A stretch of DNA of 64,000 nt, from positions 33,046,001 through 33,110,000 of the forward strand of contig OX597833.1 of NCBI GenBank assembly GCA_951406725.2, given 5' to 3'. The translations under genes and the position numbers were made by a program. A model generated the notes under the pieces. It had not been told where the DNA came from. It worked only from the letters and a program-made list of their open reading frames with translations, and did no database searches. Shown piece after piece: positions 4,658-51,435 of the stretch. Source of the DNA: Octopus vulgaris. Lineage: Eukaryota. Numbering within the stretch: position 1 is the stretch's first letter; every line of letters begins with the position of its first letter.

Positions 4658-4700
4658 TCTAAAGACTAGTTTCAGTGTATTTTCCCCTTATCAATGTAGA
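4658..4700 (-). ncRNA. Degenerate minimal HHR (PLE remnant; next to the insertion site of the ORF1-only element)
   Basis: Minus strand: tctaca-TTGATAA-gggg...cact-GAAA-ctag-TC-tttaga. Two core mismatches and a palindromic stem III. Confidence 0.4.
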
Positions 4701-4716
4701 GTAGCCGAACCCAGCA

Positions 4717-6448
4717 TTTCTCTTTATTATAGGCACAAGGCCTCCATACAGAGGGGACATACACAAACATCCGGGGACGTAAAAACGAATGGAAAATGAT
4801 AATGAAATGAACATAATTATGATGCAAATGAGACGGCCATCACGCCCCCGCTGCGAGACGAACCGGGAATACCTTTACAATTACACTTTACAATTGACTT
4901 TACGATGAAACTTTACAATTAACTTTACAATAAAAACTTTACAAACACACTTTGTGATTAAACTTTACAATTAACTTTAAAATACACTTAAAACCACCTC
5001 TAGTTTCGCTATAATGCGAAACCGTGACCTTTCCTTTCGTTTCCTGCCTTTAAAATGAACGTTCATATGTGTCCTTTGTTTCAACAAAAATAACATTTTA
5101 AATACTTGTTTGTTCATCAATTCATTTGACATTATTTCTTGTTTTTGTTTACAATAAATTACAATGTTCGTGTGCTTCTTTCAATTGTAGTTTTTTCCAC
5201 AATTTTATATACTTACCGTTCTTCAACCTATGTTTTACTTCGTGTTTTTGTCTTCCTCGCAATTTCTTCCATTTTTCCATTTCCATGCTGTTCCAGTACA
5301 TCTCTCCGCTGTGGTTCTTTCATCTGTATGCTTTCGCACTCTTGCTTGTCTGTGCATTCATCCGACTGCACTTTCTCATCCTCTTTCTGTGTATCTTTAT
5401 CATGCGACTCTAGGCACTTTCGTTCAACCTCCTCGTCGCTCTGTAATTCCACCTCTCCTTCTGCTATCTCTGTTGATGGCTCCTCTACATTTTCTGTTCT
5501 TTGTTGCACTTCCTCCTCCATTCCTTTCCTCATCTTTAGTTCTGCTGTTGTTGGAGACTTCTTTCTTTCTCTTTTCCTGCTTTTTGCCTCTGCCAGTTTT
5601 TCTTTATGTGTTATTAAAGGTATATCTACGTGTCTTAATAACTCCTCCATTGGTATACAATCCTTCATTTTGTGCCCTCTCATACCGCATTTGTAACATT
5701 TGGGTGGTCTTCCTGTCAGTATTATCTCCAACCTCTCTCCTGTTGGCAGCTCTATTGTTTCTGGCACTTTCTCATGATATCCTGGGGTCATAGTTCCGAC
5801 TATTTCTGAACCAAATCCCCCAACATTCCAGCATTCGATCTTGCTCACTAACTGAATCTCCAGTTCTGGGTTTTCCTCCTGCAGTCTGGAGCCCAAAATG
5901 GCCACTAACACCCACTCAGGCTCTATCATTGGTAGTATCCGGCGAACTCTGATTTTTACTAATCTCTTCCCTGGTGTGCATGGTAATAGCGTCCGTTTGT
6001 CTCCTTCTATCACCTGTTTAACATTCCGTGCTGCCTCTTCTTCAGGTTCAAATGTTACTGCAACTGTCCCGTAATCGTTTCCCTTTGTGAGGAAGATTAT
6101 TTCCTCGTCAATATAGCTCATTATTAGATCTATTTCTTTTTTTGGAGCTCTCTCAATCTTTCTGTTCTCGTTAGAAAATGTTCTAAATTTTTTTTCCTCT
6201 TTCTTTCTCTCTTCTTCTGGCATGACTAGTTTTATGTTCGTTCCTTCTATTTTCACCATACTGCTGTACTTCCTCAACTTCTCCATATCATACTCCATAT
6301 TCACTTGCTTTATCTTGCGTGTGTTCTCGGTTTCCCACGCTTCGGCGACCTCTGCATACGTCTTCATTTCTTCAGCTTCTCTCGTTCCACCCAACATGAC
6401 GGTCTCGCATCAATCGGTCTCACTTCTGAAAAACAAACTCAAAAGAGC
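4717..6448 (-). mobile_element. Non-autonomous ORF1-only LINE-like retroelement (1.73 kb) with 15-bp TSD
   Basis: TSD TAGCCGAACCCAGCA (4702-4716) / TAGACGAACCCAGCA (6449-6463). Single intact ORF, and a 3' stem-loop plus A-rich end. Confidence 0.85.
5228..6397 (-). CDS. LINE ORF1-like nucleic-acid-binding protein with CCHC zinc knuckle (389 aa)
   Basis: ATG start, uninterrupted frame, CYKCGMRGHKMKDC knuckle. Aligns by eye with ORF1 at 33571-34704 (KIKQVN..LRKYS/KIKKIN..LKKYA; YGTVAVTF/YGTVEVRF; GRPPKC/GRKPRC). Confidence 0.85.
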   Translation of the reverse strand: MLGGTREAEEMKTYAEVAEAWETENTRKIKQVNMEYDMEKLRKYSSMVKIEGTNIKLVMPEEERKKEEKKFRTFSNENRKIERAPKKEIDLIMSYIDEEIIFLTKGNDYGTVAVTFEPEEEAARNVKQVIEGDKRTLLPCTPGKRLVKIRVRRILPMIEPEWVLVAILGSRLQEENPELEIQLVSKIECWNVGGFGSEIVGTMTPGYHEKVPETIELPTGERLEIILTGRPPKCYKCGMRGHKMKDCIPMEELLRHVDIPLITHKEKLAEAKSRKRERKKSPTTAELKMRKGMEEEVQQRTENVEEPSTEIAEGEVELQSDEEVERKCLESHDKDTQKEDEKVQSDECTDKQECESIQMKEPQRRDVLEQHGNGKMEEIARKTKTRSKT

Positions 6449-6547
6449 TAGACGAACCCAGCAGGCGTTGCTACTGACCGTCTTTTCGAAGGATTATTTA
6501 CCTAAAATTCAGTGGGATATATCTACTGGTTTTCAAAAATAGAAAGG

Positions 6548-6696
6548 ATATTAATAGATATTGCCAAGCTAACTTGTCAGTCCAGAAAAATAGAACGATG
6601 GTTATAATGGACACAGGTTCTTGGAGCTAGTCAACGGCAGCATTCGTCCTATTTTTCTGGACTGCCAAGTTAGCTTGGCGATAACAATTAATATTC
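6548..6696. repeat. Short inverted repeat (about 50-bp arms)
   Basis: gccaagctaacttgtcagtccagaaaaatag pairs with ctatttttctggactgccaagttagcttggc. Confidence 0.8.
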
Positions 6697-13760: not shown

Positions 13761-15946
13761 TCATCGTTCAAGAGTCAAAATCAAAATTTCAAAAATCAAA
13801 AATACAAAATATATACTCTGTCCATATGGTATATTTATATTCGACATTTTAAATTTAGCCGCGTGCCTACATAAGTTCATTAGCTCGCTTCTTTGATTCA
13901 AAGAATTATTGTCTTTGAATAAGATGTACATTTTTTCTAATAGACAAAGTTTGCACTTGAAATTATTTTTGTAAGCTCCATGCCTGTATGGTGCCGCCCT
14001 GTCCAGAATGCTCCATGTCACGTTGAAAGGTGGGGCTTTCTTTTCTTTTAGTTCCCAGACGTATTTTGCTAGGCTGGTCTTCCTCCTATTCTCTGGGTAT
14101 TTAAATTAATTTTTATGAGAATAAAATCTTGTTTTAAATGAATTTTCTGAAGCCCCTGTGTATGTCTTGTATTCTGATGAGCCTTCCACTTGCACCTTGG
14201 CTCTATAAACTACTCCTTTCACTAGACATTTCCCTTCTAACGGACAGGAGCTTTCGTTTTTGCAATTGCATTTCTTAATGGGCTCGGCACCATGTCTAAT
14301 CTCAATTAGCTTCCTATTATGTTGGCTAATGTAAGAGGCGAAATTTCTGCAACAAGAATAGCTAACTTTTAGGGTTCTTCTATTAAAACTCCTATAGAAT
14401 TTATGACCCTGCTTAAAATGCTTAGAGACTAATCTCAAAAATTCCTTACCTATATTAGTCTTTACGGCCAAATTGAAAGCCGGGTTGAACCACAAAACTT
14501 TCCTGGTCCTAGTTCTTCGTGCAGCATTATTATCAGCATTAAGCTGGTTGAACTGGATCTTCTCAGAGAGTCCACTATTCTTTAATGCGCTATCGTAATA
14601 AGGTGCAGCATTATGGAATGCTGCCTCGTCCGAAGAAATTGAAGATATTCTTCTACCTACATTGCTGACTAAGTTCCTAAGGATAACTGGTGGATGGTTT
14701 GAATCTTTGCTAATATACGATAGCTTTTCATTGGGCTTACGGAAAGGTTTAAATCTATCCGATCTTACATTAAAATTTACGTCTAAAAAATCTACACTAT
14801 TCAGGTTAGCATCTATCGTAAAGCCCATCCTTTGAAAGAAAGCTATGAGGTCCTTCCTAAGTCTATCTGATTCATGGCCGTTTAGATTATGCGTGGCTAT
14901 AAGGCCGTCATCCCTATATAAACCTGCATCTATAAAAGGGAATTCTATTTTTAGATTATGGAGAATAAAGGCTCCTATGAGCATACATAACTCAGCCCCG
15001 TCGTATGCCCCCATCGGTACATCGAAAAGAGAATCCTCGGTCTTCTTAATCCAGGTGGAATCCTCGAAAAAAAGAAGCGATTTCCTCGCATGCATAATAA
15101 TATCAATTTCCGAGCTATCGATGTTGACATATTGCTTGGCGAAGTCCAATGCCCTTAGGAGCAACGTCCTAGATATTGACGGGTAAAAGTCAATAATGTC
15201 GAATTGTGTGAAACTACAATTATTTTTATAGCTAATACCTTTAAACCACTCTATGACTGACTTACTATTCTTCCAAATTCTCAAGTCCACTTCGCTATCT
15301 AACTTAACTAAAATACGGTCCAAAATATTTTTGCTAATAATTCCTATCTCAGTTTTAGCCAGATTTATCAATCTACATTTGGGGTTTCTACTAAAATTGG
15401 CTTTATGGTCTTTCAGAGTGATAAAAGCTGGTCGTGGTGAAAGATATTCAATCCTATCGCTAATCTTAAGATCGTTAGCTATTCCTCTTGCTTCTAAGTT
15501 CACCTCTTTGTATATATTCGTGTTGTCTTTTTGTATGTGTCTGTGACACTATTCGAAATCAGGCGCTTATAAACGTCCTTATCAAGTGCATATAAGTTCC
15601 TTGTCTTGTCAGAATTAACGAAGATCTTATTCGAGTCGTTAATCTCCTTAATTTTTTCTCTCATATTTTTCTGCAATTCGTTGGTATATTTGCGGAATTT
15701 AATTTTCCTAATAAGCTCGAAAAGGTCTTTCTCGAAGGCTTCTAATTCCGGAATAGGTGGCGGGTTTCTGGGAGATTTAAATCCATATTTGTTTCCTTCT
15801 ATTTTCTGTTTATTATCAAAGAAGAAGGCTTTCCATCTCAATCTTCGAATAAACTCTTCCGTTTTCTCTATAAGACCTTTGAGATATTGTTTCCGTGCAG
15901 GGATAGGTATATTTTTCTGAGAAAAATCCAGCGGGTAAAGTTCCAT
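13761..15946 (-). pseudogene. PLE reverse transcriptase + GIY-YIG endonuclease, with one frameshift and one TAA
   Basis: KNIPIP..RRLRWKAFFF, SDKT, FDIIDFYPSI, PMGAYDGAELC, YRDDG, CNCxxxxxCPL, VVY..YTG, CKLC, CRH. The frameshift lies in the A-run near 15530 and the in-frame TAA is at 14106-14108. Confidence 0.92.
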
Positions 15947-16117
15947 CTTTTTCAGCTGTTTGTTCTTCCTACTTGTGCAGAGTCGCTCAAACTTTTATAA
16001 GGAGCGGGTTACACCGGAGTAAACACATAAATGTGAAACAAGGTGGAAAAAAGAGTACTCAAATACCAGTGGTAGAGTAATATGCTTTATTTTAAGCAGC
16101 AGAAAATTCAACAAAAT

Positions 16118-23930: not shown

Positions 23931-24469
23931 TATTAATATATATATCTCTTATTATTAAAGGCAGATTTTATCTGCCTCCCTTTGTCTCTTATAGAAATCT
24001 ACAATATAGGATTTCTTCAATTACAATTTACCTAGCATTTTTAAGAGTAGAATGCATCGGGTCGTGCCAGGTCCAGTTTTTAAAATTTCAACCCCAATTA
24101 AGCAAAATTTAGAGAAAACTCACATTGTGGTGTGTATGTCAAGTGCTTTTCTTAGTTTGGGCTACAGCACACACACACACACACACAAACGGAGCGAACT
24201 GTTTCACTGACGCTATCACCCTAATTTCTCCCATCGATTAAAGTGAAAGTAATTCACTTTTTGTAGTGAGTGACTCTTTCACTTTGCATTCCCACTTCCT
24301 CTTTACACACATAGACACGCAAATAAATAAATAAAATTGTAAGCTAACGTATGTGTGTGTGTGTGTGTGTGTGGTGTGTGTGTGTGTGTGTGCGTGTATG
24401 TGAGTGTGTGTGTGTGTGTGAGGGTGCGTGTGTGTGTGTGTGCGTGTGTGTGAGTGTGTGACAGGAAAG

Positions 24470-24980
24470 TTTTTTGGGACGAATATAAGACCTAAAGTAT
24501 TTCCAAGTAGCAGAAAGATCGCCCAAAAGTGTATATAGATATTTAAATGTATTTATATATTCATCTATACACAGATGTATGTATAATGTGTGTGTATATA
24601 TTTCCATAGAGGTAACCTTTCACTCCATACAAAGTTTTTTAGGACGAATATAAGATCTAAAGTATATACAAGTAGCAGAAAGATCGCCCAAAAGTGTATA
24701 TAGATATTTAAATGTATTTATATATTCATCTATACACAGATGTATGTATAATGTGTGTGTATATATTTCCATAGAGGTAACCATTCACTCCATACAAAGT
24801 TTTTTAGGACGAAAATAAGATCTAAAGTTATCTCTAAGAAACAGAAAGATCGCCCAAAAGTGTATATAGATATTTAAATGCATTTATATATTCATCTATA
24901 CACACATGTATGTATAATGTGCGTGTATATATTTCCATAGAGGTAACCATTCAATCCATACAAAGTTTTTTAGGACGAAA
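24470..24980. repeat. About 167-bp tandem repeat x3 inside the Helitron
   Basis: aaagtttttt.ggacgaa.ataaga.ctaaagt...agaaagatcgcccaaaagtg recurs at about 167-bp spacing. Confidence 0.9.
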
Positions 24981-25230
24981 ATATTTATATATAAAAGAAA
25001 GGTTGTGTGTCTGTCTACTCCGATTTAGATTCCTAACTACTCCCACATTTTGCGATGCAGTTTAACCAAAACCGGGTATCTTATAGTCGTCATTCATATC
25101 GAGCCCTTCTGGGTATTAGCGCGCGTCTACGATGAGTCTACGATTTTACAAATAATTTACCATCATTTTTTTCCATTTTAATGCATATTTTTTTAAATAA
25201 AGGGAAGTAACTCTCAAACTTCACACCAAT

Positions 25231-25752
25231 ATGCGTGCTCATATGCGACGTAATATCACATCAGCAGCATTTCCTCACACTCTCCTTGCACTTGGCGAAG
25301 GCAAAATACCAGGGGATGAAAATGGTAATATTGCCATCGATTCCATTTGTACCATTGTTAAGACGCCTTCTGATCTCAGAGATGCAGTGTTCCCAGATCT
25401 ACAAGCTAATTATCAGAATATGGATTGGATTGGCAAAAAGGCTATACTGGCCCCAAGGAATAAAACTGTTCACCATATTAATGATGAAATGCTAAAACTC
25501 ATTCCTGGGGAAGTCTATGTATATCAGTCTATCGATACAACTCCTGACCCAGAGGACGTCATCAACTATCCAATAGAGGTACTCAATTCCTTTGAGCACC
25601 CCGGACTACCACCACACTTTCTCAAACTTAAAGTTGGTGCCCCTATAATGCTCATCAGAAATTTGGTTCCCCCAAAACAATGCAATGGCACACGTTTGAT
25701 CGTTAAGTCCTTATCTCCCACCGTAAACTTATATCAATATTTGCCTGAATAA
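25231..25752 (+). pseudogene. Helitron Pif1-family helicase fragment
   Basis: [44 protein letters not shown]. Confidence 0.9.
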
Positions 25753-26296: not shown

Positions 26297-28928
26297 TATA
26301 TGTAAACAAATCAAATTGCGATAAAATCAAAATAATTATAATCGCTGGTATTTCTAACACAAGCCATATATTTTCCACATATCAATACATTAAGGCGAAA
26401 TATGTTCTAGGAACACAGAAGCTGGATAATTTAGTGAAATGAAGATAAAAACGTTTACTAACTCGGTTATTCTCAGACTGCAGTTTCTTTCTTTTCAGCA
26501 ATAAAGATAATTTATTTGCTCAGGGAGAATTCATCAGTGAGAGCCCTGTTTTTCTGAGATCCTAACTCACTAGAAGCATGTGCTTCTAATGATTTACTCT
26601 CTCTAACTAATCAGATCACTGCGCAGACTCCGAACGTCCCGACAAAACTAGGGATTTCTGGTATATCGTCTAGCGCTCAAAATTTATCGAGATATATGTA
26701 AACAAATAAAATTGCGATAAAATCAAAATAATTATAATCGCTGGTATTTCTAACACAAGCCATATACTTTCCATATATCAGTACATTAAGGCGAAATATG
26801 TGCTAGGAACACAGAAGCTGGATAAATTTAGTGAAATGAAGATAAAAACGTTTACTAACTCGGTTATTCTCAGACTGCAGTTTCTTTCTTTTCAGCAATA
26901 AAGATAATTTATTTGCTCAGGGAGAATTCATCAGTGAGAGCCCTGTTTTTCTGAGATCCTAACTCACTAGAAGCATGTGCTTCTAATGATTTACTCTCTC
27001 TAACTAATCAGATCAATGCGCAGACTCCGAACGTCCCGACAAAACTAGGGATTTCTGGTATATCGTCTAGCGCTCAAAATTTATCGAGAAATATGTAAAC
27101 AAATCAAATTGCGATAAAATCAAAATAATTATAATCGCTGGTATTTCTAACACAAGCCATATATTTTCCACATATCAGTACATTAAAGCGAAATATGTGC
27201 TAGGAACACAGAAGCTGGATAAATTTAGTGAATGAAGATAAAAACGTTTACTAACTCGGTTATTCTCAGACTGCAGTTTCTTTCTTTTCAGCAATAAAGA
27301 TAATTTATTTGCTCAGGGAGAATTCATCAGTGAGAGCCCTGTTTTTCTGAGATCCTAACTCACTAGAAGCATGTGCTTCTAATGATTTACTCTCTCTAAC
27401 TAATCAGATCACTGCGCAGACTCCGAACGTCCCGACAAAACTAGGGATTTCTGGTTATATCGTCTAGCGCTCAAAATTTATCGAGAAATATGTAAACAAA
27501 TCAAATTGCGATAAAATCAAAATAATTATAATCGCTGGTATTTCTAACACAAGCCATATATTTTCCACATATCAGTACATTAAGGCGAAATATGTGCTAG
27601 GAACACAGAAGCTGGATAAATTTAGTGAAATGAAGATAAAAACGTTTACTAACTCGGTTATTCTCAGACTGCAGTTTCTTTCTTTTCAGCAATAAAGATA
27701 ATTTATTTGCTCAGGGAGAATTCATCAGTGAGAGCCCTGTTTTTCTGAGATCCTAACTCACTAGAAGCATGTGCTTCTAATGATTTACTCTCTCTAACTA
27801 ATCAGATCACTGCGCAGACTCCGAACGTCCCGACAAAACTAGGGATTTCTGTTATATCGTCTAGCGCTCAAAATTTATCGAGAAATATGTAAACAAATCA
27901 AATTGCGATAAAATAAAAATAATTATAATCGCTGGTATTTCTAACACAAGCCATATATTTTCCATATATCAGTCCATTAAGGCGAAATATGTGCTAGGAA
28001 CACAGAAGCTGGATAAATTTAGTGAAATGAAGCTAAAAACGTGTACTAACTCGGTTATTCTCAGACTGCAGTTTCTTTCTTTTCAGCAATAAAGATAATT
28101 TATTTGCTCAGGGAGAATTCATCAGTGATAGCCCTGTTTTTCTGAGATCCTAACTCACTAGAAGCATGTGCTTCTAATGATTTACTCTCTCTAACTAATC
28201 AGATCACTGCGCAGACTCCGAACGTCCCGACAAAACTAGGGATTTCTGGTATATCGTCTAGCGCTCAAAATTTATCGAGAAATATGTAAACAGATCAAAT
28301 TGCGATAAAATCAAAATAATTATAATCGCTGGTATTTCTAACACAAGCCAGCCGTATATTTTCCATATATCAGTACATTAAGGCGAAATATGTGCTAGGA
28401 ACACAGAAGCTGGATAAATTTAGTGAAATGAAGCTAAAAACGTTTACTAACTCGGTTATTCTCAGACTGCAGTTTCTTTCTTTTCAGCAATAAAGATAAT
28501 TTATTTGCTCAGGGAGAATTCATCAGTGATAGCCCTGTTTTTCTGAGATCCTAACTCACTAGAAGCATGTGCTTCTAATGATTTACTCTCTCTAACTAAT
28601 CAGATCATTGCGCAGACACCGAACGTCCCGACAAAACTAGGGATTTCTGGTATATCGTCTAGCGCTCAAAATTTATCGAGAAATATGTAAACAGATCAAA
28701 TTGCGATAAAATCAAAATAATTATAATCGCTGGTATTTCTAACACAAGCCATATATTTTCCATATATCAGTACATTAAGGCGAAATATGTGCTAGGAACA
28801 CAGAAGCTGGATAAATTTAGTGAAATGAAGATAAAAACGTTTACTAACTCGGTTATTCTCAGACTGCAGTTTCTTTCTTTTCAGCAATAAAGATAATTTA
28901 TTTGCTCAGGGAGAATTCATCAGTGAGA
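26297..28928 (-). repeat. 397-bp tandem array (about 6.6 units), each unit with a type I HHR (retrozyme-like)
   Basis: TTCATCAG occurs at 26530, 26927, 27323, 27721, 28118, 28519 and 28916. Minus strand: tctca-CTGATGA-...-GAAA-ctgcag-TC-tgaga. Flanked by (TA)n. Confidence 0.9.
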
Positions 28929-29081
28929 TATATATACATATATATATACATATATGCATATATATGTATATATATATGCATATACTAGCATTAAAGACCC
29001 GTCGTTGCCGGGTCATAGTGCTAGTACATGTATATATGTGTATATATATGTGTACATATTACATGTACATCTATATATATA

Positions 29082-29362
29082 CAGAGATGTGCTCGCATAG
29101 CAAGTGATTTGATCTGAGATCGTGTGCTGAAACGAAAACAATTACAGAGTGGAAGGTGTTTGTAAGCCATTTAAGAAACACACAAAAGCCGTTCGATTCA
29201 CTTCAACATTTAAGAGATGCAGCACGGATTTTTGTCAGTGAACAGGTCGCTGATTTTAGCGACGAAAATATTTTGACAAATTAAACTTAAATGTTGAAGT
29301 GAATCGAACGGCTTTTGTGTGTTTCTTAAATGGCTTACAAACACCTTCCACGCTGCAGTTGT
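29082..29362. mobile_element. Fold-back PLE-type remnant in (TA)n, carrying a G3-C8 HHR variant at 29231-29280 (+)
   Basis: Absent from the 52346-53375 copy. Arms at about 29138-29214 and 29286-29362. Confidence 0.75.
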
Positions 29363-29975
29363 TATATATATACATCTACACATAAAATACAAAATACAAA
29401 GTTATATCTTGATATCACTAGTGATAACAATACTCAAAATATATAACAGACTGGAATTGTTAGCCCCTCTCTTGTAATTTCGATCAATTGTATCTTGTCC
29501 TCCCTCTTGTATAGAAGTGTGGCTACAATTCAGCCTACCTCTACTTCTGGGGAGGGGGGCATTTAAAATTTTTTTCCGGAACGTCCTACGTCCCAGATAT
29601 AAAGGTAAAAATAAAATAAAGTACTCCCTTGCACGCTCCGCTGACTCGAACCTTGCTTCTCTTGTGGCGAATTTACCGCCTCTGATTAGATAACTTTCAT
29701 AGTCGCACCAAGACACTTTTTGAAGGTGCTTTCCTCCATGTTGTTTTATTATTACCCACAAGGGGCGAACATAGATGGAACAATACAATCTGATGATGGG
29801 GTCAGATACACGAATGGGTTTTACAAAAAAGCGAATTTTAAAAATTTACAGAAAAATAACAAAATAGAATGGAGAACAGACCGGAAGACATTACGGATGG
29901 AGTGGAAGCGGGTTTAGCTCGGACCCCACGAGCCCCGCCTCCCCACTGATACTTTGGTTTCGTCTGGTTTTACAT

Positions 29976-32900
29976 TTATGTGGTAACATCCATTCGCAAC
30001 TTTCGTGCTACATTTTTCCATCGTTCTTCATACACTCTCCTAGTCAGGCATATTCTCTCCAGCCCTATCTTCCTTTTCAGGTGAAAGATGAAATAATTCA
30101 TCAAACCAGGGCCGGAGATGAACTTGCCTGACTGTAAACCTTTCATTCTCGTCTTCCATATCACCTCTTTCGCAATTGTTACTACAACGAGAAAACAATT
30201 CTTACCTTCTTTCGCGAGGAAATCTGGTGGGTCAATTTTTGTAATCGATTCAGTCGACAGCTGTACTCTTCGTGTGCTTGACAACAGCTGTTCGGCATAA
30301 ACCCACACCTCAGACACGTCCGAACAATGAACAATAGCGTGCGGGACGGTTTCCCTATCCCGCTCGCATCTTGGACATATCGGACTGTCTTGGCCACCGT
30401 GCCTTGCGAGTTTATCCCGAACAGGTAGAGCTCCTCTGTAGCATTGCCATGCCAGAGACTTCTGGAAGTTGTCCAGTGTCTTCGGCTCGAACGTACGTCG
30501 GAACAGACTGGCCAGCTGATTATCGTCGAGACCTAGGGTTTCCCCCAAGGTATCTTCACATTCCGCCTCTACCAACCTTCTATAGAAGAATGTGGTGGAA
30601 CCCCCACCGCAGGCGTTGCCCGAGCGACGGAATAGCAGGAGAGCCTTGCGACACTCCGTGTACCATGTGCCTAGTTTCCATCTACGATTCAGCCAGGTTT
30701 CCCATCCACCGAAACTAGTGAACTTGGGAAACATCAGTTTTGCTAGCGGAGACCACACCCGTTCACCATCCAGGTAGAGCCACAGATGTCTTAACCTCAG
30801 CGCATGTCTGCGCATCATCAGCCAAGGCATCCCTAGCCCACCCTTTAACGGTTGTTGACAGCAAGTAGAGCGTTTCACAAGTGGTTTCCCGCCCTTCCAC
30901 AAGAAGTAGAAGAGCTGTCTTTCCAACTTGATCAAACACGAATCAGGGCAAGGAACGACGGAAAGGCGGTAGGTGATAACCGATGCGATAAACACATTGG
31001 CCACCTCCGCCCTCCCTTTCAGGGATAGCCACCGCCAAGACCAGGTCTTGGCTACTGCAGCCACCTTGCTCGTTACCTCGCCCCAATTCTTCTCTATCTG
31101 GACCGAACCAGACCCCTAGCAGTTTAATCGGACCCTCCGTCCAACGTCCCACGACGCTGTCAGGAGGCATCGACTTGCCTCTCCAGGTGCCGAGTTGCAA
31201 GCCGACTGACTTTTCGCGATTAACTTTTGCTCCTGTCACCGTCTCGTAAACCTCTATGGCCTTGCCTACTTTACGTAGGTGGTCCATTTCGGTTACGATG
31301 ATGGTGATGTCATCCGCGTACGCTGACACCGATTTTCCACAACCTGGCTGTCTCGGGATGCTGCTCAGTTTTCGCAGTAATGGCTCAAGAGCCATCACAT
31401 ACAAAAGCGGGGAGAGCGGACACCCTTGACGAACCGAGCGCTTGATGTTGAACGGCTTCGACAAGAAGCCGTTCACCCGAACTACCGAGTCGATGTTGTC
31501 GTAAATTTGGATAATCCACCTGAGGAAGCCGAGGCTCAGCCCGAACTGTGCTAGGGCAGATACCAGGTAGCGATGGTCGACCCTATCAAATGCTTTAGAT
31601 TGGTCTAAATGGACCAGTGCTCCACCCTTGCCAGAATCGCTATTAAACCCCTCTATAGTGTACCGCATAAGATGGAGATTATCCTGAATGGTTCTGCCCG
31701 GAACGGCACATGTCTGTGCCTCCCCGATCAGACCATCCGCGACACGCGCCAATCTTTTCGATAACACTTTGGCCAAAATCTTCAACTCTCTGTTTAGCAG
31801 AGTGATGGGCCTAAAATTATCAATGCACTCCCCCTTGCTCGGGTCCTTTCTAACGAGTGTCACTACTCCCCGGCGCACAGATCTGGGTATGAGCCCGTTC
31901 TGCTGCCAGTTCGCATAGACCTCCGCCAGTAGGTGCCCGAACAAGTCTGGCATACTCTTATATAACTCATAGGGTAGACCATCTAAACCCGGCGCCTTGC
32001 CAGCGCCGCAGTCCGCCATCGCCTCAACCACCTCCCCAGGCGTGATTGGCCCTTCACAGCCCTCCGCATCTCGCCCCGATAAGCGCGGCAGCCCGTCGAG
32101 GAGGTCCGTAAAGGCCCTCCTCCTATCCAGTCCGCCGCACTCACCGAAAAGCTGAGCGAAGTGCTCCTGAAAGGCCTCACACATCTCCTCGGGCTCATTT
32201 ATCAACTCACCTCGTTGGTTCGTCATAGATCGAATCGTGGCATCGTTACCACGCTGAGCTTCCACCACTCGGGCCCATCTCACGGCGTTGATTCCTTCAC
32301 AACCCATATGGCGGATCCTAGCCCTGACAATGCAGCCCATGTGTTTGGCCTCGAGGTGCTGGTTTAATACCAGTCTCTTGGACATCACCTGAGCCGCAGA
32401 GCCAGTTTTCAAGGCTTCCTCTAATTCCTTAACTAGAGTAGATTCCCTCCTAGCCTCTCTAGCCTCTCTAGCCACTACTCCTATGCTATATCTAATTGAC
32501 TCGAATTTGATGGCTCGTTTGAGGGCGTACCACCATTTGTTATTAATGATGGTACCCGATAGTGCCCTCTGAATTATAGTCCTAATCCGGTCTTTGTACT
32601 CCTTAATCGCCAAAAGGGACGTATTAAGTTTCCAGTAACCGGACCCTCTATTTTTAACCTTATCTATGTCAAGCTTACAGGTGACCATTTTATGATCACT
32701 GTAGCTGACCAGGTAAAACTGTGGACACTTAGCTATTTTTCTGTCTACTTTTCTAATTAGTATCCTATCTAAATATGACCTGGAAGATCCGTCGCTGTTT
32801 GACCATGTCCACAATGGAGCGTTCGGAAATTCCAACCTATAAGGATCTGCTAGCTCACAGCGGCTTAGCAGTTCCATGAAGCCACTGTTTCCTTTTCTAT

Positions 32901-33372
32901 CTGGACGCGAGCCAACACAATCTACATCCGCTTTGCAAATTGTGTTAAAGTCACCTAGCATAACTAATGAATGCGAAGTACCAAGAAAGTTTTCCAGTTC
33001 TCGAAAATAATCACTTTGCCCTTTATGGTTGGGTGCGTAAATTGCAACCAGTCTGATAACTTTACCGCTACTGAACGTCAAATCCATGACGACCAGCCTA
33101 CCTTCTGGATCTGCAAAAATTAACTTTTTCTCAGAAACCCGGTTTCTTTTTAATAGGACCAACACCCCACCCCCGCCTGTAGGACTGCCAGGAGAGAAAA
33201 AACTCTCGTAGCCGTCAAACAGCGGGAGTAGACCTCTTGGTCCCTCTAACCGGATTTCTGTAGCAACAATAACATCTAAATTACGCGACCTGATATCATT
33301 AAGGAAGCGACCTTGCTTCCAGCTTGATCCCAGGCCGCGCACATTCAAACAACCAACATAAATGTAATCCAT
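29976..33372 (-). CDS. LINE ORF2: APE endonuclease, reverse transcriptase and C-terminal CCHC finger (one frameshift near 31095)
   Basis: LNVRGL, IYAPN, GDFN, YLDRI, SDH; PGLDGL, FRPITLLN, KAFDRV, RQGCPLSP, YADD; CPRC..ETVPHAIVHC. Confidence 0.93.
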
Positions 33373-33380
33373 TACTTACC

Positions 33381-34704
33381 TTATATCAGTGATTCGGTTT
33401 TTTCTTTTTCTTCTTTGTTTGTCTCTTTTTCTGGGCCTCGTGGGGGAGTCTGACGCAGGCCCTCGAGTATATATGGATATGTTATATCGATTCTGAGCGG
33501 GCCCACGTCATGAAAGAATTCGGACTTTATCCGCCCGTAATCCTTCCGGCCTATTCTGTACACTATATAGTCATTTTTTTTTTCCTATTTTTTCCACTTT
33601 GGCCATAGCTGCCAACACATTCCCGAGTCTGTTGTTCGATGCCTTAACGGCCATAAATGAGTTCATCGACTCTCTTTTCTTCTTTTGGATCACTTTGGGA
33701 GGGGTGGTTTCAGTTTTTCTTTTTTTTGTAGTAATTTTTGACCAGCCCTCCTCATTTTTCGTTACCTCGCTCTTTTTTTCCTCCGTCGCTGGTTCCGCTG
33801 TCTCTGTCACCTCCACACCTTCAGCCGTCCCTTCTGGGCCGCCCGGCGCTGCTACTGGTGACACTTCTTCTTCTTTTCCACCTGGTTGAGCTGCTTCCTG
33901 CGGTTTGGGTTGGGGTTGGCATTCCGCCCTTACATGCCCCTTCTTGCCGCAGCCGAAGCACCTCGGCTTTCTGCCCTCTACGAAAACTGTTACTCTATCT
34001 TCTTCGCTTATTTTTAGAGTCTCTGGAATCTCCTCCGGTGTTTGAATTTCTGCCTGGATGGCTATTATTATCCGCTGTCCTTTCCAGAATTCTTCTTCCT
34101 CTACTGTGGCCTGAAGGATGTTTATTTTTTCCTCCAGGCCTACCATAACTGCTGCCACCAGACATTCGGCATCCGCTTCTGGCGGAATATTATTCATGGT
34201 GATTTTTGATGTTCTTTTTCCTCTATACAGGGGGAGGAGAACAATGTTCTCCGATTTTATTGGCTCCATAGATAGTTTTTTAGCTATCTCCTCTGTTGTG
34301 AATCGCACCTCCACGGTGCCGTATCTCTTTCCTCTATTGATGTATGTGATCTTATCCATTATTGGTTTTAAGCAATTTTCGATTTTTTTTTCCTCAATTT
34401 TTTGTATCATTTTGCTTGTTGTATTAAAGGTCTTATAAATTATTATTCTTTTAGCAATTTCTTCCTGTTTTTGGGCGTTTGTGACCACTGTCACTTCCGT
34501 GCCCTCTTTTGTCACACAGTCCGCATATTTCTTTAGGTATTCGACGTTTATTTTTTTGATTTTCTTACCAGCTACTTCTGAAAATTTTTTCGCTGGAGCT
34601 GGAATATCTTTTTTCATTGGCGACACCGCCTCTTTTTTCTTTGGCGACACCGCCGGTGATTCTGCTTCACTAGTCACAGGGGAATATGTGATGGGGGATT
34701 CCAT
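33381..34704 (-). CDS. LINE ORF1 (CCHC zinc knuckle); the 33381-33563 ORF is probably its C-terminus after a homopolymer frameshift near 33575-33583
   Basis: CFGCGKKGHVRAEC knuckle. Likely start MESPITY at 34704. The continuation ends 8 nt before the ORF2 ATG. Confidence 0.85.
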
Positions 34705-35529
34705 CTCGAACAACTGGCTTAACAAGCCCTTGGCACAACCAAGATAAGTGATATTTTTTCCCCCACGGAGGGGGGAACACCACAACGAAGTCCTCGCACG
34801 AAGGCTGACTTCAACAGTTGTACAGCAATAAACAAAGACAGGTAGACACACAGTAGAATATAACGGAGAAAATATATACGATGGCAAAAATATAATAACT
34901 TACTACACACGTGGATTGCTTTCCCCCATGCGTTCAAATCTTTTTTCTCTACATTGTATACTTTATAGACAATAGTCTTTTCTTTAATTTAATTTTTTAT
35001 TATCCATCTGGACTATTCCATTTCTGCACGCTAATTTTAGTTTTAATTTATCCCCATTCATGTGAAACCACTTATTAAAGTTCAAGTCATTGATGCAATT
35101 TTATACCAATTGCTATTTTTACTTTTTTATGTTACGATTATATTACACTTTAGTTTGATTTTAATTATTACTTACTACATATAATTCAATTGTTATAATT
35201 ATTTTTATTGTTAAAGTGAAAGTATCTGACATAAAATAGAGAAATGTTTTTGTTTCACTTTTAACACGTAATACTGAAATAGTGGAGAAGTTATGATATT
35301 GCTATGGGCTCGCTCTAGCCAAAAAGTTGAACATTTTTTCCATGAAACTACATGGACCCTAAGTAAGGCATGTGTAAAATTTGAATGAAATTGGTAGTGT
35401 AGTTCTCAAGTTTTAGGGAAACACACAGACAGACAGACACACATTCTCAGTTTTATATATATATATGTATGTACATATATGTATGTATATATGCATATAT
35501 ATATTATTTATATTATATATATATTATTG

Positions 35530-42629: not shown

Positions 42630-44117
42630 CTAGCAGCATAGCCCGGCGTTGCCCGGGTATGTAGGCAACGACTAATCCCGATCTAGTCCTTTCCCTATAG
42701 GGAACGAAGGCGCATGTGTAGGTTGCAATGTCTTCTCTTCACTCCAATACTTCTGTGTTCCTAGCTGTCCCTTTGGGCGAAAACATGAAAACATCATTGC
42801 GCCTCCCAACGCGTGAACAGCCCACGTAGAGTTGACCGTGGGCGAAGCATTGTTCGCCCAACTGTAACCCAGCGACTTGTAGCGTTTGGCCTTGGGATTT
42901 ATTGATGGACATTGCGAAGCAGAGTTTAACAGGAAACTGAGAACGCCTGAAGAGGATTGGTAGGTCAGCGCCCGACGGTTGAAGGTGCATGCGTGGAATG
43001 AAGACGTCCTCTCCCTTCCCACAACCGGTAAGTATTGTGGCCGTTATTAAATGCGGTGCCAAATGTTTCACAACCAGACGTGTGCCGTTGCACTGTTTAG
43101 GTGGAACCAAATTCCTGATGAGCATAATGGGCGCACCGACTTTTACCTTCAGGATGTGTGGCGGCTGACCTGGCGGTTCAAGTGAATTCAGGAATTCAAC
43201 AGGATAATCGGCAAGCTCGGCGGGGTCTGCTGTCCTATCTATAGATTTGTAGACGTGGACATCACCAAGGTTATGTTGTCTGGTCATGTTTTGTCTCGTT
43301 GACTGCTTGAAGTGGCGGTGTTGGGGGTAAAGTCTCGAATGTAATTTCTTCCTGGTTAGTCTGGAGGTTTCGACGTAATCTTCCTGGTTAGTCTGGAGGT
43401 TTCGACGTAATCTTTGGTTTGAAAATTAAGTCTAGAGTTCCTCCTGTGGGTTGAATTATCGATAGCTGTTTGATAGTTATTTGGGGGAGTGAGTTAAAGA
43501 AGGTCGAGTTGCGTCCCCTAGACAGTCTGTAGTTTGTGTTTAATACACAAATCGGTTTGCTATGGGTGCCACATATGATTTAATTAACCGATTTTTTCCA
43601 GTAATAAAGTATCCTATTGGAATAAAAAGGGCCATATAGCTCCTTGGAGCAGATATGATGCTCGCTGTGAATTTTTTAAAAATTCCTGCCAATTTGTGAA
43701 AGATATTGTCGAAAATATGTCATCTTGAATTTAAACGCGATTTCCCAAAATGGCATGATTTTATCGATTTTTTCTGATGGTAAGGTATTGCATGGAAAAC
43801 TAACGTCAGAATTAAGTTTCTTAGGGTAACATTAAGCTTCACCATGAGTTTGGGGAAAATCGATTGCAAGTTGCGAAAACTACAATAGAAAATGTGTTGC
43901 ATATAAGAAGCTTAGATTCTCGACCCCATGTCGAATTTATCAATTTTTTTCAGAACTGGGGGAACTTTTCAAAACTTTCGCTACGTTAGTTTTGAATTAT
44001 GACATTGGGCTATGTGTGTGTCAAGTTTCATCAGAATCGGTTGAAAGCCGTGGTCAGGGTGAGGGTACAACCTGACAGACACACAGACAGACAAACTGCC
44101 TTTTATATAGAGAGAGA
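42630..44117 (-). mobile_element. Non-autonomous Helitron carrying a Pif1 helicase C-terminal fragment
   Basis: Minus strand has 5' TC at 44117, a 3' hairpin cccgggcaacgccggg followed by CTAG, and an A|T target. Confidence 0.85.
42739..43287 (-). pseudogene. Helitron Pif1-family helicase C-terminus (motifs V-VI)
   Basis: [34 protein letters not shown]. Confidence 0.92.
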
Positions 44118-46736: not shown

Positions 46737-47136
46737 AGGCGGTGAGCTGGCAGAAACGTTAACACGCCGGGCGAAATGCGTAGCCGTATTTCGTTTGCCG
46801 TTACGTTCTGAGTTCAAATTCCGCCGAGGTCGACTTTGCCTTTCATCCTCTCAGGGTCGATAAATTAAGTACCAGTTACGCACTGGGGTCGATGTAATCG
46901 ACTTAATCCGTTTGTCTGTCCTTGTTTGTCCTCTCTGTGTTTATCCCCTTGTGGGTAGTAAAGAAATAGGTATTTCGTCTGTCTTTACGTTCTGAGTTCA
47001 AATTCTGCCGAAGTCGACTTTGCCTTTCATCAGTTCGGGGTCGATAAATAAAGTACCAGTTGCGTACTGGAGTCGATCTAATCGACTGGCCCCCTCCCCA
47101 AAAATTTCGAGCCTTGTGCCTAGAGGAGAAAAGAAT
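46737..47136 (+). mobile_element. Tandem pair of Nin-domain-like tRNA SINEs with two different 3' tails
   Basis: Head ggcggtgagctggcagaa (A box), gagttcaaattc (B box), core gcctttcatcc..gggtcgataaa..agtaccag. Tail A is at about 46905-46968 and tail B at about 47085-47136. Confidence 0.88.
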
Positions 47137-48889: not shown

Positions 48890-49044
48890 GATTATATCGA
48901 CCCCAGTGCGTAACTGGTACTTATTTAATCGACCCCGAAAGGCAAAGTCGACCTCGGCGGAATTTGAACTCAGAACGTAGGGGCAGACGAAATGTCGCTA
49001 AGCATTTCGTCAAGCGTGCTAACGATTCTGCCAGCTTGCTGCCT

Positions 49045-49132
<88 letters not shown>

Positions 49133-49450
49133 CTTTTCTACTGAAGGCACAAGGCCATGAAATTTTGGGGTAGAGGACTAGTCGATTACATCGACCCCAG
49201 TATTCAACTGGTACTTATTTTATCGACCTCGAAAGGATGAAAGGCAAAGTCGACCTCGGTGGAATTTGAACTCAGAATGTAAAGACGGATGAAATGCCGC
49301 TAAGCATTTTGTCCAACGTAGTAACGATTTCTATTATAGGCGCAAGGCCCGAAATTTGGGGAGAGGGAGCCAGTCGATTAGATACCCCAGTATGCAACTG
49401 GTGCTTAATTTATCGACCCCAAAAGGATTAAAGACAAAGTTGACCTCGGC
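48890..49450 (-). mobile_element. Cluster of three Nin-domain-like SINEs with a (TAC)n(TAA)n tract
   Basis: Repeated atcgaccccag..aactggtactta..atcgacc.cgaaagg..aaagtcgacctcggcggaatttgaactcagaac. Confidence 0.88.
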
Positions 49451-50890: not shown

Positions 50891-50902
50891 AATGATAATC
50901 TT

Positions 50903-51435
50903 ATCTACTCAAGGCACAAGGCCCGAAATTTTGGGGGAGGAGCCAGTCAATTAGATCGACCCCAGTACGCAACTTGTACTTAAGGATGAATTTGAACTCA
51001 GAACGTAAAGACAGACGAAATACTTATTTCTTTACTATGCACAAGGGGCTAAACACAGAGGAGACAAACAAGGACAGACAAAGGGATTATGTCTATTACA
51101 TCTACCCCAGTGTGTAACTGGTACTTAAATTATCGACCCCGAAAGGATGAAAGGCAAATTCGACCTCGGCGGAATTTGAACTCAGAACGTAACGCCAGAC
51201 AAAATACCTATTTCTTTACTACCCACAAGGGGCTAAACACAGAGAGGACAAACAAGGACAGACAAGCGGATTAAGTCGATTACATCGACCCCAGTGGTAC
51301 TTATTTTTATCGACCCTGAAAGGATGAAAGGTAAAGTCGACCTCGGCGGAATTTGAACTCAGAACGTAACGGCAGACAAAATACGGCTACGCATTTCGCC
51401 CGGCGTGCTAACGTTTCCGCCAGCTCGCCGCCTTA
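50903..51435 (-). mobile_element. Tandem Nin-domain-like SINE cluster (tails A and B)
   Basis: Near-identical to the reverse complement of 46737-47136. Confidence 0.88.

Follow-up and report, generated by a model that had tools for sequence, protein, structure and literature searches.

Elements of the L1 clade are the textbook 'relaxed' readers of poly(A) tails. L1-clade cases with a structured tail are rare and have been reported from plants and algae, stringent 3′ recognition being described for the monocot LINE1-1_ZM with ZmSINE2/3 and for the Chlamydomonas L1-1_CR with SINEX-3_CR (Ohshima 2012, PMC3472496; PMC3747384). In the Tx1 clade, Tx1L inserts in Tx1D, Keno in U2, and Kibi and Koshi in (TC)n and (TTC)n, and Tx1-Mar is associated with SINEU (Kojima 2015, PMC4494074). 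Non-autonomous LINEs that carry ORF1 only include HAL1, HeT-A and Ag-Sponge (Kojima 2018, PMC5786205). Octopuses contain the tRNA-derived SINEs OK, OR1 and OR2 (Ohshima and Okada 1994, cited in PMC4758252, PMC4824008 and PMC3531059), for which the accessible portions of the three citing papers name no partner LINE. A 2026 repeat annotation of octopus counts L1-Tx1 families (PMC13282606); its supplement gives family counts only, and no analysis of tails was found in the available part. Our literature search, with Repbase, subscription journals and bioRxiv supplements outside it, returned no account of the tail described below in octopus and no animal case of stringent L1-clade recognition.

We analysed a window of Octopus vulgaris DNA (the whole stretch, 64 kb) together with related elements throughout the genome. 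L1/Tx1-type LINEs, ORF1-only derivatives and a SINE were found to end in a common tail module, composed of a conserved linear box, a 4–5 bp hairpin whose stem letters change in pairs, and AAUAAA. Judging from the sequence comparisons, this module is probably an RNA handle for ORF2. We tested whether the stem covaries between families, whether the loop is constant, whether an AGGC helper exists, and whether spacing classes and a tail swap can be recognised.

Elements with a common tail in the window and the genome

The elements of the window are listed in Table 1. ORF2 of the LINE contains the Pfam domains Exo_endo_phos, RVT_1 and zf-RVT, and intact ORF2 copies in this group of LINEs measure 1128–1148 aa. 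With L1 and R2 as the only references, it aligned with human L1 ORF2 at 227 bits over residues 6–868 and with R2 at no more than 84 bits, in agreement with the L1-like assignment made from the sequence alone; its sole informatively named relative was a hypothetical protein of Argonauta hians, and no named Tx1 protein appeared among the matches. About 12 nt separate the LINE hairpin from a conserved U/G/C-rich box upstream of it. The LINE occupies a fixed site in a Helitron-like repeat, the Helitron label being presumptive. ORF1 of the ORF1-only element shares 29% identity over 241 aa with ORF1 of the LINE. Elements of this kind, present in multiple copies, have an ORF1 homologue, no ORF2, and a LINE-type 3′ end with a target-site duplication, as HAL1-like elements do. 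The SINE has a Pol III A/B-box-like head; neither ARAGORN nor Rfam detected a tRNA. It may be comparable to the OK SINE.

Table 1. Elements, hairpins and duplications in the 64-kb window (positions count from its first letter); the last line locates long arrays.
Feature	Position	Strand	Remarks
L1/Tx1-type LINE, full-length, family A, tail class I	29741..34930	−	many intact 1128–1134 aa ORF2 copies elsewhere
LINE ORF1	33571-34704	−	zinc-knuckle-type motif
LINE ORF2, split by one frameshift	30943-33375; 29976-31115	−	endonuclease and RT; zf-RVT
LINE 3′ hairpin	29754..29766	−	arms GCCC/GGGU, loop CUUGU
LINE A-rich tail with AAUAAA	29741-29753	−	directly after hairpin
LINE target-site duplication, 3′ copy	29727..29740	−	14 bp
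LINE target-site duplication, 5′ copy	34917..34930	−	1 mismatch
Helitron-like host repeat, non-autonomous	28985..35456	−	split by LINE; microsatellite near 5′ end, terminal hairpin and CTAG-type 3′ end
ORF1-only element, tail class II	4717..6452	−	without ORF2
ORF1 of ORF1-only element	5228-6397	−	zf-CCHC
ORF1-only 3′ hairpin	4731..4743	−	arms AGGC/GCCU, loop CUUGU, two extra bases, then AAUAAA
ORF1-only target-site duplication	4706..4716 (3′ copy); 6453-6463 (5′ copy)	−	11 bp
Hammerhead-like motif beyond ORF1-only 3′ duplication	about 4660-4700		labelled by motif inspection only; no Rfam match
SINE dimer	46739..47130	+	full unit with tail A, then 5′-shortened unit with tail B
SINE tail A hairpin (dimer)	46944-46956	+	
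SINE tail B hairpin (dimer)	47109-47121	+	GAGC variant, one broken pair
SINE cluster with long (TAA)n run	48890..49450	−	tail B hairpins 49145-49157 and 49338-49350 (variant loop)
SINE chain, 184-bp period	50897..51430	−	tail A 51221-51233, degenerate tail A 51037-51049, tail B 50912-50924
Long arrays	G000 C9:59.21-59.25 Mb, C27:32.95-32.99 Mb, C4:70.04 Mb; L062-L069		

Eight CUUGU hairpins with at least 3 pairs occur in the window, of which six are element ends. All the LINE, ORF1-only, SINE A and SINE B hairpins quoted in the sequence-only reading are present. It did not include the two degenerate copies, at 51037-51049 and 49338-49350, and the GAGC variant contains a broken A-C pair with no compensation. 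Several other features were observed in the window. Two ORFs at 14106-15994 (−) have no Pfam match, and the one of 480 aa was placed with Penelope-like RT/GIY-YIG proteins (Atlas, score 0.95). Fragments of a Pif1 helicase 2B domain, probably Helitron remains, lie at 25201-25752 (+) and 42739-43425 (−). The Helitron-like repeat is adjoined by tandem arrays at 26298-28928 (397 bp, 6.6 copies, 98% matches) and 24466-24983 (165 bp, 3.1 copies), and an inverted repeat of ~40 bp is located at 6540-6690, just upstream of the ORF1-only element and within its host repeat.

A first look at the genome gave 23,019 candidates for the window LINE family, 150 of which were scored; many had an intact ORF2. 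Among 30 loci of LINE relatives, 9 were not oriented and so fall outside the tail count, and all 21 with correct orientation ended in the GCCC/GGGU hairpin or a one-base variant of it. The tail is a property of the LINE family, and a chimera with a SINE end limited to this locus is ruled out. As exact patterns, the SINE A tail occurs 92,831 times, the SINE B tail 6,211 times and the AGGC-type end 99 times, and the reversed-pattern control gave 0 for each. Contigs of four runs aligned on the LINE end (three runs), a weak source, listed no common variants inside the hairpin. One contig, representing RNA or possibly DNA, spans the junction between a tail and the next element. No poly(A) is common to the tails, as the first reading had it, except that in one ORF1-only family (L062, L069) the hairpin is followed by runs of A reaching about 27 nt.

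Pairing in the stem and variation of the loop

Divergent ORF2 families were gathered by searches with the C-terminus, and their 3′ ends were located by an anchor rule that was blind to pairing. The anchor was present for 158 of 174 ORF2 C-termini, and removal of stop-containing and duplicate records left 115 records in 15 clusters at 85% identity. We found that a stem of at least 4 bp (at least 3 of them Watson-Crick pairs) ended 0–2 nt before the AAUAAA anchor in 12 of the 15 LINE families and in 100 of the 115 records; three families failed the 4-bp rule. In shuffled sequences 3.3 ± 1.6 families had such a stem, and 0 of 5000 shuffles reached 12. The ranking of hairpins was changed from most pairs to Watson-Crick pairs after the first result had been seen, and the null was recomputed; under the first ranking, which picked a G-U-rich register for family A, 10 of 15 families had the stem and no shuffle exceeded 8. 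When families with different arms were combined into chimeras, 27 of 136 paired; among control windows from the UTR, 36 of 240 did (earlier ranking rule).

The stems included GCCC/GGGU, GAUC/GAUC, AAUC/GAUU, GAUU/AAUC, CGAUU/AAUCG, AACC/GGUU, AGCC/GGCU and ACCA/UGGU. Across the 15 families pair 1 was C-G in 11, U-A in 3 and A-U in 1, and pair 2 was C-G in 8 and U-A in 7. In two sequence-only alignments, A2 and A3 (8 and 7 rows), both sides changed at 4 of 4 and 3 of 4 pairs, respectively. The covariation scores were 0.79 for A2 and 0.67 for A3, values reached by 0 of 500 shuffles and compared with at most 0.29 for slid registers; the two alignments had been split by hand according to loop length with four families left out, their structure was derived from the same sequences, and the shuffles ignore the relatedness of the families. 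The compensatory changes first noticed between a few elements of the window were thus recovered between families. Among SINE copies there was no independent covariation, and the variants were single breaks or G-U/G-C wobble.

The predicted probability of the closing pair was 0.56 for the LINE, 0.96 for the ORF1-only element and 0–0.97 for SINE B; it was 0.07 and 0.40 for the two SINE A copies cited originally and 0.0 for the degenerate SINE A, and the family A LINE has an alternative G-U-rich register. Since stems of this kind are weak in isolation, a protein would have to stabilise them.

The loop behaved differently from what had been described. The sequence-only reading called it nearly invariant, whereas the LINE loops comprise 4–6 nt of many sequences (CUUGU, CUAGU, UAUU, ACUU, GUAU, UUUAU, UCAU, UUAA and CUGUGU), and CUUGU is the mark of one sub-group only, the one represented in the window. 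The positions constant in a 16-row alignment of ends were the last U of the loop (16/16), several U's of the upstream box and most of the tail. A conserved loop that sets specificity, as expected of the stringent type, was not found across the LINE families. The anchor read AAUAA in 158 of 158 LINE ends and in 11 of 30 SINE A ends, and SINE B has retained the hairpin while losing AAUAAA and the upstream box.

Tail classes, target sites and exchange of tails

A tree of ORF2 C-termini (60 columns) separated 6 families from 9 with support of 99/99. Two extra bases between stem and tail were found in the 6-family clade, in the ORF1-only end of the window and in SINE B; the other rows and SINE A are without them. 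Hammerhead-like flanks occurred at 25 of 53 class II LINEs and 21 of 60 GGC ends, compared with 0 of 66 class I LINEs, 0 of 31 GCCC ORF1-only elements and a background of 20 in 2000; for SINE B the count was 0 of 30. Helitron sites followed 22 of 66 class I ends and 1 of 53 class II ends. Furthermore, all 28 chain junctions were class-concordant (17 I-I, 11 II-II, 0 mixed), and two of them join GGC and AUC types. These chain and target counts are not independent, as they involve tandem arrays, shared loci and targets, and loci chosen by query, and common targets alone would put like elements side by side. At U2 starts, one GGGC ORF1-only element and three GAUC-stem LINEs were located directly at the start (4 of 30 loci). 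Hence two recognition classes seem to exist, which track the ORF2 clade, the targets and the neighbours in chains, in line with the two ORF2 specificities suggested at the outset.

Because spacing, flanks, U2 starts and chains agree, the ORF1-only element of the window most likely rides on class II LINEs, with stems GAUC/GAUC or GAUU/AAUC, and not on the window LINE. The latter had been proposed to support both this element and SINE B, but it is probably not their helper, since both belong to class II, whose LINEs differ in stem. The autonomous LINE ending in AGGC/GCCU that the sequence-only reading called for did not appear in a search with exact patterns: within 1.3 kb upstream of the 99 exact five-base-loop AGGC ends there was ORF2 at 0 and ORF1 at 43; 5 of the ends were themselves SINE-like, 51 gave no protein match, and the same procedure detected ORF2 at 12 of 12 control LINE ends. 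Among six-base-loop GGC ends, the 30 sampled of 135 likewise had no ORF2 upstream (105 lay outside the sample). Because 51 of the 99 AGGC ends lack any protein match, an old, 5′-truncated AGGC LINE may be among them.

Insertion shows a target-sequence preference, for the Helitron-like site, the hammerhead-like repeat, the U2 start or (TC)n, with target-site duplications of 11–20 bp that start a few bases past the tail. The Helitron-like target site had 432 exact matches; of 30 loci with the target 20-mer, 18 were empty host, 10 were filled and 2 were of another kind. In several LINE copies (L082-L131) the 5′ duplication departs from the empty site in a common way, as if templated by the start of the element's RNA. 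No element tail was present upstream at 28 of 30 hammerhead-type sites and 26 of 30 U2 starts. We considered self-targeting at the hairpin as the first step of chain formation, and rejected it because empty targets carry no hairpin. The hammerhead label of the target repeats is presumptive, being based on motifs; our own motif test was enriched in the flanks, and Rfam at the gathering threshold, applied to 16 loci, reported only U2.

A five-base motif was found 55–60 bases upstream of U1 (27/30), U2 (23/30) and the hammerhead-type site (24/30, clustered copies), which suggests that an snRNA-type promoter may be present and that insertion may occur at its start. Targeting of every snRNA start was discarded, as 0 of 30 U1 loci had an element tail directly upstream. 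Several individual loci were also recorded. Class II LINEs and a GGGC ORF1-only element stand at the first bases of U2 genes and hammerhead-like repeats (L141, L142, L175, L235, L242, L243, L254; L347-L376), and in one repeated unit a class II LINE (L174:455-6773) sits at an initiator-like sequence, with a TATA-like box ~29 bases ahead of it. Of the family E LINE ends, 28 were read by eye (L503-L532), and (TC)n came next in 25 of them, a Kibi-like pattern. In another LINE family (L391, L393) a four-base microsatellite follows, inside a U1 gene cluster.

Long head-to-tail arrays hold near-identical LINEs, repeating every ~5.3 kb, and ORF1-only elements, repeating every ~1.8 kb; mixed chains occur as well. 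At 12 of 30 loci a further SINE unit came after SINE A, and duplications of 9–16 bp were present in 8 of the 18 others. No LINE was seen inserted in the SINE head among the loci compared. The junctions between SINE units fall at two fixed points inside the SINE head (these 12 of the 30 loci L257-L286, and the dimer and chain of the window), and the duplications of solo SINEs often start with the same few bases as the internal site.

We then compared bodies and tails. An ORF1 tree was built from 16 representatives (76 candidates, 60 of them labelled). It separated the LINE ORF1s (98/96) from 10 of 11 ORF1-only rows, the exception being a row with a long branch. The ORF1-only family L062, which has the class I tail GCCC/GGGU, nests among GGGC families, with L067 as its sister (100/99). 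With the GGGC sister it has 71–95% identity in the body and an almost unchanged UTR as far as the shared box, while its likeness to the class I LINE is limited to the last ~30 nt, and the swap accompanies a move to class I chains. Judging from these alignments, L062 has exchanged its last ~30 nt for the other tail class, which bears out the notion of swappable tails: a class II-type body now carries a class I end. SINE A aligned with class I tails, and with the window LINE over the last ~45 nt. SINE B shared ~22 nt, best with the AGGC ORF1-only tail. An ORF1-only donor would be the simplest source of the SINE B tail, because of these ~22 nt and because no such LINE was found.

Recognition of the tail and comparison with known systems

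In the mechanism that we propose, ORF2 would bind the hairpin, so that reverse transcription would begin a set few bases beyond AAUAAA. The letters of loop and stem would count for less in this than the shape of the hairpin and how far it lies from the tail, because within class II the passengers (GGC/GCC) have other stems than the LINEs (GAUC/GAUC, GAUU/AAUC) but agree with them in spacing, targets and chains. This would be the opposite of zebrafish L2, in which, according to the accessible part of the report, the loop and not the stem gives specificity (PMC4176376). Passengers would change helper, and hence target site, by exchanging the last ~30 nt at the shared box. AAUAAA would serve as a Pol II 3′-end signal, which LINEs and ORF1-only elements have retained and SINEs are losing; if so, the RNA would extend into the target duplication, and an internal start of copying would leave the poly(A) out. 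A wider reading is a two-channel addressing of RNA 3′ ends by a sequence-free hairpin and its spacing, in which a tail swap changes both helper and landing site, and ORF1-only donors pass LINE tails to SINEs. We put this forward tentatively, as possible rather than probable; if true, the choice of landing would be between Helitron sites and the starts of snRNA-type transcription units.

Other explanations were weighed against an ORF2 handle. ORF2 might recognise the CUUGU loop itself, two ORF2 types being separated by CCC/GGG and GGC/GCC stems and an AGGC/GCCU LINE existing. The window LINE, the ORF1-only element and both SINE tails have this loop in common, loop-specific recognition has been demonstrated in zebrafish L2 (PMC4176376, in the portion available), and the helper may have died out or decayed beyond detection. 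However, LINE loops differ in length and sequence with only the last U constant, ORF2 was upstream of none of the 99 five-base-loop and 30 sampled six-base-loop GGC ends, and GGC elements keep company with GAUC-stem LINEs, both in chains and at U2 starts; we consider loop recognition quite improbable. The hairpin might instead be kept for the making of RNA (3′-end processing or stability next to AAUAAA, or binding of ORF1) and be present in SINEs by descent, an account that is unlikely. While the hairpin abuts a perfect AAUAAA in all 158 LINE ends and SINEs show just breaks and wobble, SINE B has kept a hairpin without AAUAAA or the upstream box, and the tail class tracks ORF2 clade, target and chain partner, including the L062 swap with its class I chains.

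It is highly improbable that the pairing is a chance by-product in short AT-rich tails, or a DNA-level signal read by the endonuclease in earlier insertions. The stems are short, at 4–5 bp, pairing also arises in roughly one in five shuffles and chimeras, and elements accumulate head to tail; against this, no shuffle reached the observed family count, and first insertions enter targets free of a hairpin, as at the empty Helitron sites and at most hammerhead-type and U2 sites. An ORF2 handle is therefore our preferred reading, and the octopus tails likely work in the manner of stringent L1-clade 3′ recognition, as far as can be told from sequence. They would represent a young, high-copy animal example of it. 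Their natural stem and loop variants, two classes and captured swap amount to ready-made mutants for how an L1-like ORF2 chooses its RNA. They bear on how poly(A) reading could have arisen, and hint at the group that supplies the helper of this SINE, which is among the most abundant in octopods.

The octopus tails resemble the monocot and Chlamydomonas L1 pairs, so far as the consulted parts of those papers describe them, in a conserved L1-clade 3′ end (~45 nt there), a compensatory hairpin and SINEs that share the tail. They differ in the animal host, the loop not conserved across families, most copies being without poly(A), the ORF1-only passengers that share the tail, the two spacing classes and the target specificity. 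As in Tx1-clade LINEs, targets are family-specific and include transposons, U2 genes and (TC)n, tandem copies form around the duplication, and passengers have the target of their helper; SINEU, in the part of that account seen, is tied to Tx1-Mar by target alone, with no LINE similar to the 3′ half of SINEU-1 (PMC4494074), whereas in octopus the tail itself is shared and structured. Like HAL1, HeT-A and Ag-Sponge, as they are partly described, the octopus ORF1-only elements encode ORF1 alone and depend on an autonomous LINE; unlike them, they have a long-lived ORF1 lineage of their own, both tail classes and tail swaps, and have seemingly donated a SINE tail. The SINE, an abundant octopod one with a Pol III-like head as OK, OR1 and OR2 are, may be akin to OK. 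ZfL2-1, ZfL2-2 and eel UnaL2 also have a 3′ stem-loop, required in cis there, and the zebrafish pair offers two coexisting LINEs with separate tail specificity (PMC4176376, accessible part). In those L2-clade systems the loop sets the specificity and stems can be swapped, whereas in octopus the loops drift and the spacing appears to follow the ORF2 clade.
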